Source of the DNA: Minisyncoccia bacterium
GTDB taxonomy: Bacteria > Patescibacteriota > Minisyncoccia > Phycocordibacterales > UBA9973
Length of the DNA stretch: 64,000 bases
Reading direction: 5' to 3'
Assembly (NCBI GenBank): GCA_039809245.1
Contig: JBDHUP010000004.1
Location: forward strand, 12,599 to 76,598
In this document: piece after piece, positions 2,627 through 63,200 of the stretch
How the letters are laid out: every line of letters begins with the position of its first letter
Position numbering within the stretch: position 1 is the stretch's first letter
Translations under genes and position numbers: made by a program
Notes under the pieces: model-generated
Told to the model about the DNA's origin: nothing
What the model saw: the letters and a program-made list of their open reading frames with translations, nothing else
Database searches by the model: none

Positions 2627-3169
2627 ATGAAAAAAATACTAATTATAATTCTCATAGTTGTTATTGCTGTATTCATTGGGAGTAAGCTTATTCCAAATAG
2701 TAAAAATATTAATACTCCAATACAAGAAGAAGGTAATAATGTATCAAAAGAAATAGATACCCCAATAAAAGAACAACCAGTAGCATGTACCATGGATGCA
2801 AAAGAGTGTCCTGATGGATCTTATGTGGAAAGAGTTGGACCTAAGTGCGAGTTTGCTATGTGTCCAACTCCTACAACTAACTCAACGACAGCATCAATAA
2901 ACCAATCTATATTTAATAATGGTGTATATATAAAACCTCTTGAAGTCCTAGAGGATAGTAGATGTCCTACAGGTGCAAACTGTATATGGGTGGGCACAGT
3001 AAAAATTAGAGCTAAATTATCGACAAATGATATTAGTCAAGAAATAATTTTAACACTCAATGAACCTTCATCTTTTGAAAATAAAAAAGTAACTCTAATA
3101 GGAGTTAGTCCAGAGTCAAATGGTAAACTGAAACCTTCAGATTATAAATTTACATTCTCTGTGAAGTAA
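2627..3169 (+). CDS. secreted Cys-containing hypothetical protein
   Basis: Signal-anchor N-terminus and several Cys pairs. No family call. Confidence 0.45.
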   Translation: MKKILIIILIVVIAVFIGSKLIPNSKNINTPIQEEGNNVSKEIDTPIKEQPVACTMDAKECPDGSYVERVGPKCEFAMCPTPTTNSTTASINQSIFNNGVYIKPLEVLEDSRCPTGANCIWVGTVKIRAKLSTNDISQEIILTLNEPSSFENKKVTLIGVSPESNGKLKPSDYKFTFSVK

Positions 3170-3331: not shown

Positions 3332-3480
3332 AGACAACTATTATACTATACTTTTATTTTTACAAAAATGTTATAATCTTCTCATTATTAGTAAACATTT
3401 TCTAAAATATCTATGGCAAAAGGAATGGGTGCGAGAAAAGAAAAGAAAAAACCAAAAGCTGCAAAGAAAAAGTAGCAAAC

Positions 3481-5383: not shown

Positions 5384-6811
5384 TTATAGGTTAGTTACAA
5401 AGATATTTTCATTTGATAGAGATGAATTACTAGAACCATCTTCTGATTTAATTACGAAGTAGTATAGAGTACTTGAATTAAGACCAGTAATTTCTAGTGA
5501 GTGTTCTGTTTTCAAAGTTTTATCTCCTACACTAGATGTAGAACCTAGATTCACATCAACCGGTGTATTAAGAGAATAAAATACTTCTGAAGTTGCGGGC
5601 TCGTTTGTCATCCATGTAATTGTACTACCTGAAGCTGAAACTTTTGTAGCTATATTACTAATTATAGGTGCAACAGTGTCAGTAGGATTTTCAGTAACAG
5701 TTATTTCCATTGATGAACTAGTTTTCTGGCCCTTACTATTTTCAACTGTAAAGTTTGCAGTGTATATTCCTGCTTTATTATATACATGTTCAAATGTTGA
5801 ACTTTGAATAAATATTGGCTGTTTAACTGAAAGTGCTTTTACAAACAAGTCATCGCCCCAATCTACTGAATAAGTAAGTGAATCATTGTTTGGATCATAA
5901 GCATTTACTTTAACAGTCTCAGTTTGTCCTACCACAACAGTTTTTGAGCCTGATAGACTTGTAATAACTGGAGAATTATCTGTAGATGCTGGTGTAGTGA
6001 ATGAAATCTCAGATGATATAGTTCTTCCATTCTTATTTGCTGAACCTACTACTACATAGTAAGTAGTTGATGGTTCAAGTCTATTTAGATTCATTTTGTG
6101 ATTTAGAACTTTACCGTGGTTACCTTTATTGGCTTTGATGTTTGTATTTACTGGAGAAGTAGTACTAATCCATAGCATACTTGAAGAACGGACATCTGTA
6201 TTCCATACTACTTTTGCATTATGGACCTTAACAGATTCAATAGATAAGTTACTTATGACTGGTAGACTAGCAGATTCACTTGTTACGTAAACTGTAACCG
6301 TTGAATTAGCTTTTTCTCCTGTACTATTACTTACTGTAAACTTTACAGTATATGCACCTTTATTTTGATAAGTGTGGGTAAATGTACTTGTCTGTACGAA
6401 AGCCTCTTGAGACATTCTTGAGAAGAGCTGTGAATCTTCATCGCCCCAATCTACTGAGTAGCTAAGACTTCCATTGTTTGGATCTGAAGCATTAACTTTC
6501 CATGTACCTTCCTGTCCAACTTTTAGGACAGTTGGAGCTGTTATACCAGAAATGTTTAATCCTGTACTAGCTAATGTTGAAGAATGAGATCTCTCTCCAA
6601 ACCAACCAGACAATCTCTTGAAAAAACCATGCTCATCGGAATCTTCGTCTTTATTTTTATTTAATTTTACTTTTGTACTTTGTTTTACTTCTATTTTATT
6701 TTCATTTTTATCATTATCAGCAAAACTTAATGATGGGATAGTTACAAGGACTAAAGCCATAATCAAACCTGTTGCTAATAATCTATTCTTTTGATTTTTA
6801 ATGTTTTTCAT
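5384..6811 (-). CDS. secreted protein with tandem PKD-like and Fn3-like repeats
   Basis: Signal peptide. Repeated motif SYSVDWGDxxS occurs twice, with Fn3-like beta-rich repeats. Confidence 0.6.
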   Translation of the reverse strand: MKNIKNQKNRLLATGLIMALVLVTIPSLSFADNDKNENKIEVKQSTKVKLNKNKDEDSDEHGFFKRLSGWFGERSHSSTLASTGLNISGITAPTVLKVGQEGTWKVNASDPNNGSLSYSVDWGDEDSQLFSRMSQEAFVQTSTFTHTYQNKGAYTVKFTVSNSTGEKANSTVTVYVTSESASLPVISNLSIESVKVHNAKVVWNTDVRSSSMLWISTTSPVNTNIKANKGNHGKVLNHKMNLNRLEPSTTYYVVVGSANKNGRTISSEISFTTPASTDNSPVITSLSGSKTVVVGQTETVKVNAYDPNNDSLTYSVDWGDDLFVKALSVKQPIFIQSSTFEHVYNKAGIYTANFTVENSKGQKTSSSMEITVTENPTDTVAPIISNIATKVSASGSTITWMTNEPATSEVFYSLNTPVDVNLGSTSSVGDKTLKTEHSLEITGLNSSTLYYFVIKSEDGSSNSSLSNENIFVTNL

Positions 6812-58496: not shown

Positions 58497-60008
58497 ATGA
58501 AAAAACAATCAGATCAGCAAAAAATAGGCTTTTTTATTAAGGAATTAAGGGAAAAACGTAAATTAACCCAAGGAGCATTTGCCAAAGAACTAGGTACATC
58601 TCAGAGCGCCGTAGCCCGCATGGAGAAGGGTGAGCAGAACTTCACAACAGAGCTTCTGTCTAAAATAAGTACTGTCTTAGACCACCAGATAGTATCGATA
58701 AATGATTCTATAGATTTCCAAATCGTTGGTGGGAAGAAATTAAGTGGAAGTATTACAACCAGCTTCTCTAAAAATGGATCAGTTGGGCTTCTTTGTGCTT
58801 CCCTTCTGAATAAAGGTAAGACGACACTTCATGGTATCGCACGTATTGAAGAAGTTTATAGGGTTATAGAAATACTAGAGAGTATCGGTGTGAAAGTCTC
58901 TTGGATAAAGCAAAACTGTGTAGAAATAACACCGCCAAAGAAACTAAAACTTGAAAACTTGAACGTAGAGTCAGCGATAAAAACAAGATCTATAATTATG
59001 CTTATAGGTCCACTTATACATTTGCTTCCATCTTTCTCTATTCCCCACGCTTCGGGTTGCAACTTGGGTAAGCGAACTATCTCGGCACACAAATACGCTC
59101 TTGATGAATTGGGAGTTAAAATAAAAACTACAAATACATCCTACGACATAACAGTAAATACACTTAAGCCCGCAGACATAGTAATGTACGAGACTGGAGA
59201 TACCGCTTGTGAAAATGCTTTAATGGCTGCTGCCAAGATTGATGGTATAACAAAGATAGAGTGTGCTAGTGGAAACTACATGGTCCAAGAAGTTTGCTTC
59301 TTCTTGCAATCACTTGGAGTAGAGATTGAAGGTATAGGCACAGGTACTCTTACTATAAAAGGTAACCCTAATATAAATATGGATGCTGAATATCACAATA
59401 GTGAAGATCCTATTGAATCAATGATGTTTATATCTGCAGCTATCGCAACTGATTCTACTCTTACTATCAACCGCTGCCCTATCGACTTTCTTACGCTTGA
59501 ACTTTATAGATTAAAAAAGATGGGATTAAAATATAAAATCCTAAATAAATATCTATCGAAAAACGATAAAACAAAGCTCATAGATATAGAGATCCTGCCG
59601 AGTGTTCTGAAAGCTCCTTACGATAAAATCCACGCTAACCCATACCCAGGTATAAATATAGATAACCTTCCTTTCTTCGTGCCTATTGCTGTGCGTGCCG
59701 CTGGTACAACACTTATACATGACTGGTTCTACGAGAATCGTGCTATTTATGCTACAGAGCTTAACCGCCTAGGAGCAAGTGTTACTCTAGCCGACCCTCA
59801 CCGTGTATATATAACTGGTGGGACTCCTCTGACTTCAGCTCAAGTGGTCTGCCCTCCAGCACTCCGCCCTTCTATGGTTATCCTTATATCTATGCTTGCC
59901 GCAGAAGGTACTTCAATCCTTCGAAGTGTCTATATGATTAACCGTGGCTATGAAGATATAGCTCGTCGCTTGAACTCCATCGGTGCAGATATTACAATAC
60001 TTAAGTAA
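58497..60008 (+). CDS. murA: XRE-family HTH domain fused to UDP-GlcNAc 1-carboxyvinyltransferase MurA
   Basis: Residues 1-65 form a classic XRE HTH (LTQGAFAKELGTSQSAVARMEKG). The rest is the EPSP-synthase-fold MurA, with the catalytic Cys in SGCNLGKR and a C-terminal NRGYEDIARRL. Confidence 0.8.
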   Translation: MKKQSDQQKIGFFIKELREKRKLTQGAFAKELGTSQSAVARMEKGEQNFTTELLSKISTVLDHQIVSINDSIDFQIVGGKKLSGSITTSFSKNGSVGLLCASLLNKGKTTLHGIARIEEVYRVIEILESIGVKVSWIKQNCVEITPPKKLKLENLNVESAIKTRSIIMLIGPLIHLLPSFSIPHASGCNLGKRTISAHKYALDELGVKIKTTNTSYDITVNTLKPADIVMYETGDTACENALMAAAKIDGITKIECASGNYMVQEVCFFLQSLGVEIEGIGTGTLTIKGNPNINMDAEYHNSEDPIESMMFISAAIATDSTLTINRCPIDFLTLELYRLKKMGLKYKILNKYLSKNDKTKLIDIEILPSVLKAPYDKIHANPYPGINIDNLPFFVPIAVRAAGTTLIHDWFYENRAIYATELNRLGASVTLADPHRVYITGGTPLTSAQVVCPPALRPSMVILISMLAAEGTSILRSVYMINRGYEDIARRLNSIGADITILK

Positions 60009-60924
60009 TCTGCTTCTTAATTTTATATCCCTTACAATGTTTGAGTATACCTAGATACGATTGCTTTACTTCTGGTGGGACTTCTTTTTTGAATAGTCTT
60101 AACATTCGCTTCTTTGTATTTGTACGTAAGGTAGTATGGTAAGGAAAAATGACATACCCGAGGAAATCAATACCTTGAGACGCTTTCCTTATTTCTACTT
60201 TTCGTGGATGCAGAGATAATTTTAATTCAGTTTCTAAGAAATTAGAAACTCTTGGAATCAGTTTCTCTGTATATTCTCTATCTTTTGAGACTACTACAAA
60301 ATCATCACAATACCGGATATAGTGTTTTACTTTAAGTATATGTTTTACAAACTTATCAAATTCATTCAGATATACATTTGCAAAAAGCTGACTTGTGACA
60401 TTACCGAGCGGAAGACCACATCCTTTTGATTTTTCAAAACTTGAAATAATATTTTCAATCAACCAGTGAGTATCACGGTCTTCTATATACTTAAAAAGGA
60501 TATTTTTCAATATCACGTGGTTAATAGAGTCAAAGAACTTGGAGATGTCACACTTAAGCACCCAAATGTTCTGCGTATTATTCTTGCTTTCTTTGCGAAT
60601 GAATTCTCTAAGTCTTTCCACCCCTTTGTGCGTTCCTTTATTATTCCTACAAGAATATGAATCATAAATAAAAGTGGGGTCATATATTTTATACAATACT
60701 CGATATATTGCTTGATGTACTACCCTATCGCGAACATTCGCTTTATGTATATGCCGTCGCTTTGGATCATAAACATAGAAAGGGATATATGGCTGATTCT
60801 TATATATCTTATCTCGTAAGTTATAATGAAGATTGAATATATTACTCTCTAAATTAAAATCAAATTCTAAAACATCCTTCTTTTTATTCTTGCCTTTTTT
60901 GAATTCCCACCAAGCACCAAGCAA
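60001..60924 (-). CDS. DGR reverse transcriptase (N-terminus interrupted by a G10 tract; as called, it starts at TTG)
   Basis: RT motifs 1-7, including LPLGNVTSQLFANVYLNEFD (DGR hallmark [ILV]GxxxSQ, closely matching Bordetella phage bRT) and YCDDF. An ATG at 61009 becomes in-frame with 9 instead of 10 G. Confidence 0.85.
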   Translation of the reverse strand: MLGAWWEFKKGKNKKKDVLEFDFNLESNIFNLHYNLRDKIYKNQPYIPFYVYDPKRRHIHKANVRDRVVHQAIYRVLYKIYDPTFIYDSYSCRNNKGTHKGVERLREFIRKESKNNTQNIWVLKCDISKFFDSINHVILKNILFKYIEDRDTHWLIENIISSFEKSKGCGLPLGNVTSQLFANVYLNEFDKFVKHILKVKHYIRYCDDFVVVSKDREYTEKLIPRVSNFLETELKLSLHPRKVEIRKASQGIDFLGYVIFPYHTTLRTNTKKRMLRLFKKEVPPEVKQSYLGILKHCKGYKIKKQIT

Positions 60925-60966
60925 ATTTTCAATTGATATGATATTATTAAAAACACCATGAGTATA

Positions 60967-60976
60967 CCCCCCCCCC
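60967..60976. repeat. homopolymeric C10/G10 tract
   Basis: Ten consecutive C on the plus strand in a roughly 33% GC context. It lies inside the probable 5' coding region of the RT. Confidence 0.9.
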
Positions 60977-61051
60977 GACAGAATTATTGAGCTTCCTATC
61001 CTTGGTCATATAAAGAGATTATATAAAATCTTGTACCAAATAGGAATGAAA

Positions 61052-61339
61052 ATGCCTAAAAATAATAAACTCGGTATTCATAATGTTTTACAAGAAAAGT
61101 GTCTTGAAATACTTACGACTGTCGTAGATGCTTCACTTCGTTCAAAACAAGATAAAATTCCTTATCTTGTAAAAGCTCGTAGAGATATAGAAGTACTTAA
61201 ACATTTAGTTCGAATGGAGTACGAATTAGAAATCATAACAGAGAAGACATATCTAGCTAGTGCGCATATATTGCAAGACATTTCAATGATGGCAACAGGC
61301 TGGCAGAAATCACTGCAAACACAAAAGCCCTTGATGTAA
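61052..61339 (+). CDS. avd: Avd-like DGR accessory protein (putative)
   Basis: Basic helical protein of about 95-100 aa ending 25 nt upstream of the TR. RBS AGGAA lies before Met8. Orientation is opposite to the RT and target. Confidence 0.4.
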   Translation: MPKNNKLGIHNVLQEKCLEILTTVVDASLRSKQDKIPYLVKARRDIEVLKHLVRMEYELEIITEKTYLASAHILQDISMMATGWQKSLQTQKPLM

Positions 61340-61363
61340 ATCAAGAGCTTTTACGAGAAACTT

Positions 61364-61472
61364 CTGACGTGGACCGTTGTCGGGATTGCGATTGTCACGA
61401 TTGTCGTTGCTCACGTTGAACTGGTCATTGTCATTACGGTTCATGTTCAAAGCGTTGCCGTCGGAATCAAGT
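61364..61472 (-). repeat. DGR template repeat (TR)
   Basis: 109-nt repeat. In target-gene sense it reads ...GGC AAC GCT TTG AAC ATG AAC CGT AAT GAC AAT..., with 14 AAY codons. It is invariant relative to the VR except at A positions. Confidence 0.8.
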
Positions 61473-61702
61473 CTCTGTATGTAGTCATCTTTATCTCCGT
61501 GTATCGTTTACACAACACACTGTGTTATCTAGCTCTTTACTAGTCTTTGTTTAGAATCTTAATTTAATTCCCTAACTACATACAGGCAGTTTCTAAATAT
61601 TGGCGAACCGTCATCTCTTTAAAGATCAGCTCAACAGCCGTTTATAGTATATATAAAAAATTCCCCTTGGCAAAATAAATTGCAAAGGGGAAAAGTTAAA
61701 AG

Positions 61703-62467
61703 CTACGCAGTTTTAGAAAGCTTAAGCTGACGTGGACCGTGGACGGGATAGCGATTGACACGAAGGCCGAGGCACACGTTGAACCGGTCATAGTCATAAC
61801 AGAGCATGCCCAAAGCGTAGCCGTCGGAATCAAGTGCATGGAAGCGGGTCAAACCTTTTACGTCCAACATGTTGCCTGTTTCAAACCTTTCACGGAAAGC
61901 GGCAATAATACCTTCTTTCGGAATCATGTAATCGTTGCCATCATTGCAAAAATCATCATAACTCTTATTGAGGTGCTCTGTATCAGGCTCGATAGTTCCT
62001 GCCCAAGCAAAGCAATAGTTGCCTTTTGGACGATCCTGCTGTGTATCTATTGCATTATCCGGATTCTGCGAATATGAATTGCTGGAAACTTTATCGTCAC
62101 CAAATTTTTTCTTATAAGCAGTAATATATCGCTTGCAATTAAAACCTGCGTGAACGTATTCCAACCGCGGAAATTTTTTATCATATTCGGGTAATGTTGT
62201 GGTAGACCAGTCTATAATATGATTGAAGTTGCTTTTGTAAAAGCGTTCAATCTTTTTCTTCTGGTCAGCCCAAGGGTCAATTTCTATAGCAAGTAATTTT
62301 GCTACAATTTTAGCCGTGGCGTTTTCAACAAGTTTTTCATCTCCGAGAATTTGTTGCATTTCTCCTAAATTGAAATGTCCATCAATGGCATTAATAACAC
62401 CATTGGAAATAGTGAGGCCTAAGCGTGCATATTGCGCGCCAGTAGCCGGGATTTTCGCGTTGTTCAT
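61703..62467 (-). CDS. DGR target (variable) protein, 254 aa, VR at C-terminus
   Basis: The ORF's last roughly 45 codons include the VR. About 20 TR/VR differences, all but one at TR adenines. Confidence 0.75.
   Translation of the reverse strand: MNNAKIPATGAQYARLGLTISNGVINAIDGHFNLGEMQQILGDEKLVENATAKIVAKLLAIEIDPWADQKKKIERFYKSNFNHIIDWSTTTLPEYDKKFPRLEYVHAGFNCKRYITAYKKKFGDDKVSSNSYSQNPDNAIDTQQDRPKGNYCFAWAGTIEPDTEHLNKSYDDFCNDGNDYMIPKEGIIAAFRERFETGNMLDVKGLTRFHALDSDGYALGMLCYDYDRFNVCLGLRVNRYPVHGPRQLKLSKTA
61727..61835 (-). repeat. DGR variable repeat (VR)
   Basis: Direct-repeat partner of the TR, encoding ...LDSDGYALGMLCYDYDRFNVCLGLRVNRYPVHGPRQ. The TR encodes N at most varied codons. Confidence 0.8.
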
Positions 62468-62603: not shown

Positions 62604-63200
62604 TTGGCTTATATGGCGAAAATGTCTAATCGTGAGAAGCTTGATGAATTAAATACATACTGGCAGGAGCATTGTACTTGTGAGCTAAAAAAGACTGCAA
62701 CACAAGCTGTCTTTGGTGATGGAAATGCTGATAGCGATATAGTTTTCATTGGTGAAGCACCAGGTAAGAATGAAGACCTCGAAGGTAGGCCTTTTGTCGG
62801 AGCTGGGGGTAAATTCTTAGCTGAAATGCTTGAGAGTATAAAAATGAAACGAGAAGATATCTATATTACCAACATTGTAAAATATCGCCCACCGAACAAT
62901 CGTGATCCTCTACCAGAAGAAAAAGAAGCTTGTAATGAATGGCTTATGAGTGAACTCAAAATAATTAACCCAAAGTTAATAGTATTCCTAGGTCGCCACT
63001 CAATGATGCGATTCTTCCCTGAAGAAAAAATATCGGATGTTCATGGAAAACTTTTGATAAAAAATATTACGGAACTTAATAAGAAGCAAGCCTTCCTCCC
63101 TCTCTACCACCCAGCGGCCGCACTATACAACGGAGGCTTACGCGAAACATTAATTAAAGATTTTAAGAAAATCCCAAAAGCACTATTAAAACTTGGGTAA
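62604..63200 (+). CDS. uracil-DNA glycosylase, family 4
   Basis: GEAPG motif (FIGEAPGKNED), HPAA motif, and Cys residues for an Fe-S cluster. Confidence 0.8.
   Translation: MAYMAKMSNREKLDELNTYWQEHCTCELKKTATQAVFGDGNADSDIVFIGEAPGKNEDLEGRPFVGAGGKFLAEMLESIKMKREDIYITNIVKYRPPNNRDPLPEEKEACNEWLMSELKIINPKLIVFLGRHSMMRFFPEEKISDVHGKLLIKNITELNKKQAFLPLYHPAAALYNGGLRETLIKDFKKIPKALLKLG

Follow-up and report, generated by a model that had tools for sequence, protein, structure and literature searches.

A diversity-generating retroelement of a Minisyncoccia bacterium with a poly-G tract at the reverse transcriptase start and a covarying RNA structure upstream of the template repeat

A sequence of 109 nucleotides occurs twice, once inside a gene and once outside it, in the genome of a Minisyncoccia bacterium. 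Are the two copies the variable repeat (VR) and the template repeat (TR) of a diversity-generating retroelement (DGR), is that element complete, and what governs its reverse transcriptase (RT)? The repeat lies in a stretch of 64,000 nucleotides of contig JBDHUP010000004.1 (assembly GCA_039809245.1, positions 12,599 to 76,598), hereafter the window, in which all coordinates below are counted. An earlier note, made from the letters alone, had read the pair as a DGR, and this reading is supported by the adenine bias of the repeat, a VR protein of predicted lectin fold, a bRT-like RT, a probable Avd homologue and recurrence of the pattern in 20 loci. We consider it highly probable that the locus is a complete DGR of the type found in the Candidate Phyla Radiation (CPR, or Patescibacteria), in which a homopolymer tract may gate the RT and the TR probably has an RNA of its own. 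On the minus strand, read 5' to 3', it comprises the target gene with the VR, a terminator, an apparently separate gene for the TR RNA, avd in reversed orientation and the RT gene.

Repeat search and pairwise alignment identified one ungapped direct repeat of 109 nt, with the TR at 61364-61472 and the VR at 61727-61835 (both minus strand; offset 363 nt, 83% identity). In the sense of the target gene the two copies differ at 19 positions, 18 of which are adenines in the TR. As the TR holds 35 adenines in 109 nt, the probability of at least 18 of 19 differences falling on A is P = 4.3e-10 (hypergeometric/Fisher). The adenine-site changes from TR to VR comprise ten A>T, four A>G and four A>C. This per-base tally, a check that the earlier note had proposed, showed that the differences are not spread over the four TR bases. 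It bears out the adenine-specific mutagenesis that the note had seen, as well as its two quoted translations, which are exact; the bias stands, while the count of about 19 of 20 becomes 18 of 19.

The substitutions are placed so as to change the protein. Ten of the mutated adenines occupy codon position 1, eight position 2 and none position 3, and 33 of all 35 TR adenines are at positions 1 or 2. AAY codons make up 11 of the 37 TR codons; nine of them are changed, and they hold 13 of the 18 adenine substitutions. All 15 changed codons are non-synonymous and none became a stop, in agreement with the claim that most changes lie in AAY codons and create no stops. The single exception to the adenine rule, likewise noticed before, is a C>T difference (plus-strand G at 61438 in the TR, A at 61801 in the VR) that turns CGT into TGT and arginine into cysteine. 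The TR codon at this site agrees with the family consensus CGY, and the change therefore arose on the VR side, either as an ordinary point mutation or as a rare misincorporation at a base other than A. The proposed search for additional VR copies was run on the 64-kb window, where blastn, nhmmer and an A-masked scan found none.

We compared 32 related loci from Paceibacterota/Nomurabacteria, referred to by L numbers where they must be told apart. The TR, which is non-coding and adenine-rich, is conserved across loci with invariant adenines, and the adenine-only pattern recurs in 20 related loci and in each of the 32 that includes a TR, with typically 11-21 differences at TR adenines and 0-3 elsewhere. 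These data bear on one alternative, an ordinary duplicated gene fragment that diverged neutrally and acquired its adenine bias by chance. Nothing beyond the existence of the repeat speaks for it. It is contradicted by the P value above, by the lack of third-position changes and the 15 of 15 non-synonymous codon changes, by the adjacent RT and Avd, and by recurrence of the pattern in 20 independent loci. We regard it as refuted by the bias and the related loci, and give it next to no credence.

Some relatives depart from the usual arrangement. At L025:4105-6825, two target genes flank the cassette and both are diversified from one TR. At L023, VR and TR (3019-3104 and 3385-3470) are 100% identical over 86 nt before the contig ends, as though this target had either escaped mutagenesis so far or undergone a recent reset. 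L003:4499-4700 and L018:1218-1344 hold TR and VR with 19 adenine-only differences, yet avd is reduced to its last 19 codons and there is no RT within 3.5 kb; they look like a decayed or split DGR.

Both repeats end in a G+C-rich block. The last 14 nt of the VR, ACGGTCCACGTCAG (61727-61740, minus), are identical to the TR 3' end (61364-61377) and are 64% G+C, compared with 36% for the window. In all 17 aligned loci the block CGGTC.(.)CGTCAG is kept in both VR and TR, which agrees with the earlier description of a GC-rich VR end resembling an initiation of mutagenic homing (IMH) site; by analogy with the DGR of Bordetella phage BPP-1, the block may have an IMH-like role. Past it, relatives read CAG-nn(n)-AGTTTCT after the VR (2-3-nt spacer) and CAG-A-AGTTTCT after the TR (1-nt spacer).

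The 10-nt palindrome reported to follow the VR is present (AGCTTAAGCT, 61719-61728), and it is not a conserved cruciform element. It is found only in the window and is missing in all 16 related loci of the alignment, having stemmed from a small insertion that also alters the last residues of the protein. The window contains 89 perfect 10-nt palindromes, about one per 719 nt, and the region folds no better than shuffles (z = 0.08). We therefore rejected a cruciform and regard the palindrome as a chance feature. Among inverted repeats downstream of the VR, the nearest one that is conserved is a terminator-like hairpin with U6, about 35 nt away (61655-61692, minus; folding -17.5 kcal/mol, z = -4.6), which would end the target-gene transcript. 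A hairpin followed by a T-run lies about 35 nt past the VR in every related locus, with stem sequences that differ and covary; this is most simply the terminator of the target gene. A simple terminator scan listed neither this hairpin, whose stem is imperfect, nor the hairpin after the TR described below.

The gene that carries the VR (61703-62467, minus) encodes a protein of 254 aa, with the VR supplying the codons for residues 212-247. It belongs to a family of ~250-aa proteins of Candidatus Paceibacterota/Nomurabacteria that are conserved except at C-terminal positions matching the AAY codons of the TR. An N-terminal helical domain is followed by a C-terminal domain resembling C-type lectins and formylglycine-generating enzyme (FGE), which holds the VR and is predicted to have the C-type-lectin fold of known DGR variable proteins. 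The variable proteins TvpA of Treponema denticola and TaqVP of Thermus share only 9-11% sequence identity with the target, and its N-terminal four-helix domain is unrelated to them.

The RT body comprises 322 codons without an internal stop (60001-60966, minus). The listed open reading frame (ORF), 60001-60924, begins at a TTG inside the conserved N-terminal helix, and the frame remains open back to 61005. Its product matches Pfam RVT_1 (E = 1.7e-25), and the translation contains LGNVTSQ, a DGR-type LGxxxSQ motif 4, and YCDD, the YxDD catalytic motif. The best match among Protein Data Bank structures is bRT, the RT of the Bordetella phage DGR (8ub7_A, E = 2.6e-43, residues 19-305 versus 8-283). 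In the profile libraries used, which hold no DGR-specific RT model, the best NCBIfam match was a group II RT model, below its cut-off. A probable avd homologue lies beside the RT gene on the strand opposite to TR, RT and target (61031-61339, plus; likely start ATG at 61052; 95-102 aa). Its homologues in relatives carry precomputed bAvd matches, and across the 20 related loci with a complete cassette avd keeps the same position and orientation. The order TR-(avd)-RT with reversed avd is constant.

This order is known as architecture B3 and is that of 90% of CPR DGRs (Wu et al. 2018, PMC5758913). A DGR clade restricted to CPR bacteria (clade 2) has targets without known domains (Roux et al. 2021, PMC8144416). 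The locus shares with these elements the TR-(avd)-RT order, the reversed avd, a small domain-less target, a C-terminal VR and hosts among Paceibacterota/Nomurabacteria, and its gene order shows no difference from theirs. It is an ordinary member of the known CPR DGR group, and we rejected the inverted avd as a novelty. Neither of the two papers mentions a poly-G tract at the RT start or a structured 5' leader, the two features to which we now turn.

The RT gene opens in an unusual way. A conserved ATG (61009-61007) starts an 11-codon N-terminal peptide, MTKDRKLNNSV (60977-61009, minus), which runs into a G10 homopolymer (60967-60976, minus; plus-strand C10) that gives the RT an N-terminal Gly-Gly-Gly. 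The peptide follows a pattern conserved in relatives, M-x-(N/D)-N-R-(K/Q/E)-L-(N/D). In the window one extra nucleotide puts the ATG and the RT body in different frames; the RT frame contains no ATG, GTG or TTG before the conserved N-terminal helix, and only CTG, ATT and ATA upstream of the tract. G10 is the only G/C run of at least 7 nt in the window, where GGG makes up 14% of the glycine codons. Upstream, a TATAAT -10 box (61018-61023, minus) lies 9 nt before the RT start codon, within the 40 nt that separate the divergently oriented avd and RT genes, and can be read from the sequences as conserved in 16 loci. The promoter scan did not list it, having found no -35 match. Its distance of 9 nt from the ATG implies a leaderless or near-leaderless RT mRNA.

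The tract is a lasting feature of the family, and its length varies. Of 24 distinct related loci, 23 have a run of G8-G20, even where RT identity falls to 56%; L001 and L033 retain avd and the tract and end before the RT. L001, a Logan contig (SRR19427084) that is an independent assembly of the same sequence, breaks at position 5930, 69 nt past the tract, a break that may stem from heterogeneous reads or from low coverage of the homopolymer. The tract-less exception, L025, spells Gly-Gly-Gly as GGT GGA GGT in frame with the upstream ATG, and the ATG peptide, GGG and RT therefore form the intended ORF; having lost the homopolymer, the RT of L025 is locked in frame. Close relatives differ in tract length on otherwise near-identical backgrounds: the in-frame G9 of L039 and the out-of-frame G10 of L034 lie in sequences that otherwise share 99.8% identity over 1.9 kb, and L040 (G20) and L041 (G13) show no other difference. 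Likewise, within RT protein clusters at 90% identity, proteins whose bodies are identical vary solely in glycine count (3-8 Gly) or in frame. The upstream peptide is in frame with the RT in L013, L026, L037, L039 and L040, as well as in L025. Five in-frame cases among 23 tract-bearing loci, against an expected one third, fit random tract length (P = 0.17), and a bias toward OFF alleles is thus not significant. We also set aside the notion, taken from protein N-termini, that interruption of the tract always goes with an intact frame, because this class is defined by the gene callers themselves and only L025 supports it at the DNA level.

Collectively, this behaviour suggests a slipped-strand contingency tract that acts as a phase-variable switch of the RT. 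G10 is one base too many, and the assembled consensus of the window is therefore probably in the OFF phase; loss of a single base, to G9, would restore the full RT ORF. The tract resembles the poly-G/C contingency loci of Campylobacter, Neisseria, Haemophilus and Helicobacter (PMC8355987, PMC5084427) in its G8-G13 length, its place in a 5' coding region, its A+T-rich genome, its variation in length between close relatives and its effect on the reading frame. In contrast, those loci mostly encode surface structures or restriction-modification enzymes and none is known to be a DGR RT, whereas here the hosts are uncultivated CPR bacteria and the tract is known from sequence. Literature on DGRs with homopolymers, phase variation, frameshifting or slippage yielded no description of such a tract; Paul et al. 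2017 (Nat Microbiol) lay outside the coverage of this search.

The frame of the window RT could also mean that the element is a relic, in which the VR was diversified in the past, a frameshift has since made the RT a pseudogene and the TR/VR differences record former activity. The out-of-frame ATG and the lack of ATG, GTG or TTG in the RT frame are what such a relic would show, and the loss of RT and most of avd in L003 and L018, which keep TR and diversified VR, demonstrates that decay occurs in the family. We nevertheless think this improbable here: the 322-codon body is open, and its sole defect lies in a homopolymer that relatives conserve. Moreover, those relatives hold in-frame and out-of-frame alleles on identical backgrounds, and conservation extends to the leader RNA, avd, promoters and terminators, all of them intact.

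The same alleles could instead belong to an active DGR in which the tract is no switch. RT would then be produced from every allele, by ribosomal frameshifting or transcriptional slippage, from a non-canonical or tract-adjacent start, or with the upstream ATG peptide serving as a regulatory short ORF. An ATG, GTG or TTG does stand in the RT frame just before the tract in L004, L006, L009, L011, L019, L024, L029, L030, L034, L036 and L038. Additionally, bRT begins at about the GGG, which may make the upstream 11 residues dispensable for the fold, and 11 of 16 tract-bearing loci share the same relative frame with one extra base (a plain count, with L033 read by eye). However, the window, L002, L005, L010 and L015 have no canonical in-frame start, and the RT frame of L005 and L015 is closed by a stop codon right before the tract. 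The zero frame past the tract offers no stimulatory stop or rare codon for frameshifting, and the share of in-frame loci is that of random tract lengths. Slippage of RNA polymerase, moreover, is best documented for A/T runs. We judge this account unlikely on balance, though one that deserves real weight beside phase variation of the RT by the tract.

The second feature concerns the template. Because avd is inverted, TR, avd and RT cannot share one transcript, and the TR appears to sit in an RNA of its own at 61315-61651 (minus), with accessory RNA upstream of it. A promoter-like site directly follows the target terminator (61646-61673, minus): a -35 TTGCCA, a 16-nt spacer and a -10 TATACT, with 10 of 12 matches in the promoter scan. 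Its -10 box, TATA(A/C)T, is invariant in the 17-locus alignment. Between this site and the TR, an RNAalifold consensus of the 17 loci outlines a structured 5' leader of ~170 nt (61473-61639, minus). It comprises a helix pairing 61639-61622 with 61617-61602, a 12-bp helix pairing 61585-61574 with 61486-61475 and ending 3 nt before the TR, and two shorter helices, 61572-61569 with 61556-61553 and 61520-61512 with 61507-61499. Of the 46 pairs in the consensus, whose alignment runs from the promoter to beyond the TR, 32 show compensatory changes, and 98.1% of cells across the 17 loci are paired. None of 500 shuffles reached this level, and slid controls paired at 34-53%. No known RNA family was found for the TR RNA, as Rfam at the gathering threshold gave only six tRNAs in the window.

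The leader may also reach across the TR. An AGUUUCU begins 2 nt after the TR (61356-61362, minus) and would form the 3' strand of a long-range helix with AGAAACU in the leader (61594-61588), which lies 2 nt upstream of the 5' strand of the 12-bp helix. Both TR ends would thereby be clamped by leader RNA and the TR closed into a loop, as far as the aligned sequences can tell. Next comes a stem-loop of 16 bp, capped by a UUAC tetraloop and followed by a U-rich tail (61320-61355, minus; folding -16.7 kcal/mol, z = -4.7). It is present in all 17 loci with covarying stems, and the stop codon of the convergent avd lies within its loop. By position it matches the BPP-1 element Sp3-33, and it is probably an Avd-binding element, as well as a putative bidirectional terminator shared with avd.

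Comparison with BPP-1, whose order is mtd-avd-TR-brt, places these elements in context. The two systems share adenine-specific mutagenesis, a lectin-fold target with a C-terminal VR, homologous RTs, a G+C-rich block at the 3' end of TR and VR and, probably, Avd. They also share a tetraloop stem-loop right after the TR, at the position of the Avd-binding Sp3-33, and a duplex abutting the TR 5' end, at the position of the cPRT Stop. The spacer that follows the TR in BPP-1, 140 nt long, contains the Avd-binding stem-loop, primer strand, cPRT-Stop strand, thumb ring and bRT-binding stem-loop (Handa et al., bioRxiv 10.1101/2023.10.23.563531). The accessory RNA of BPP-1 is thus nearly all 3' of the TR, whereas here the 3' flank measures ~45 nt and the covarying structure, of ~170 nt, is found on the 5' side. 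Two further differences are that avd is inverted here and that brt has no homopolymer at its start, unlike the window RT with its G10. The order of elements in the leader, a strand pairing with the TR 3' flank, a 2-nt linker and a strand pairing just upstream of the TR, mirrors that of BPP-1, where the primer strand is followed after 2 nt by the Stop strand, in a permuted position. By this analogy the leader strands may be equivalent to the primer and Stop strands.

These observations suggest the following mechanism. The TR would be transcribed as an RNA of ~320 nt from the promoter just after the target terminator, starting near 61640 and ending in the U-tract at 61326-61315. In this RNA, a leader helix would abut the TR 5' end while the leader AGAAACU pairs with the AGUUUCU 3' of the TR, clamping both ends; the stem-loop after the TR would probably bind Avd and terminate transcription. 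If the biochemistry of BPP-1 applies, RT-Avd would bind the TR RNA and copy it into cDNA with random misincorporation opposite adenines. The cDNA would then replace the VR, with the G+C-rich block and AGTTTCT serving as the 3' homing boundary. The production of RT would be set by the poly-G tract, itself hypermutable, that separates the conserved start codon from the RT body. As a generalisation, a large clade of CPR DGRs may combine an RT gated by a hypermutable poly-G tract, giving a reversible, heritable on/off state, with an RNA 5' of the TR that positions or primes the template. We hold this broader claim, which is drawn from sequence comparison, tentatively and at slightly less than even chances.

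Several observations weigh against parts of this proposal. As assembled, the RT has no canonical in-frame start, and the element could be inactive now; the missing intact RT gene lowers the claim of activity as assembled, not that of DGR identity. This organism is covered by assembled sequence, namely one contig and an identical Logan contig; the polymorphism in tract length is one seen among relatives, and continuing VR diversification or mixed tract lengths in the organism itself would be predictions of the proposal. Part of the variation in tract length may reflect noise in the assemblies, since coverage is ~9x on the L034 and L039 contigs and a single data set may underlie both L040 and L041. 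For avd, the Pfam bAvd match (E = 3.5e-9, 37.5 bits) is below the gathering score of 40, and the NCBIfam DivGenRetAVD match (E = 2e-10) reaches 40.9 bits against a cut-off of 80. IMH and IMH* are identical over the 14-nt G+C block and differ only downstream, and the directionality of homing is therefore unreadable from them. The long-range helix has weaker support than the leader: its seven pairs comprise five that are invariant, one with a compensatory C-G to U-A change (L005) and one with a mismatch (L011), and it is missing in the single-sequence minimum-energy fold.

The genes flanking the cassette recur in part among relatives. Divergent from the target, a family-4 uracil-DNA glycosylase gene lies at 62604-63200 (plus), and the same neighbour is found in both of the closest relatives of the window (L001:3628-4215 and L002:5270-5860). 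At the other end, a 503-aa ORF (58497-60008, plus) adjoins the RT and appears to encode MurA, of the EPSP-synthase family, fused to an N-terminal XRE-type helix-turn-helix; its homologue in L002 has precomputed HTH_3/HTH_31 and EPSP_synthase matches.

As a DGR, this locus is one more among the thousands catalogued in CPR bacteria, and a reader with only the sequence can spot such elements. The natural RNA variant with its structured 5' leader can help to sort the RNA-protein contacts of BPP-1 that are essential from those that are needed anywhere in the RNA, and it matters for the engineering of compact DGR-based mutagenesis tools. If the tract does gate the RT, a contingency-type homopolymer would be a simple and testable answer to how DGR mutagenesis is held in check, and only a sub-population of cells would diversify its binding protein at any time.

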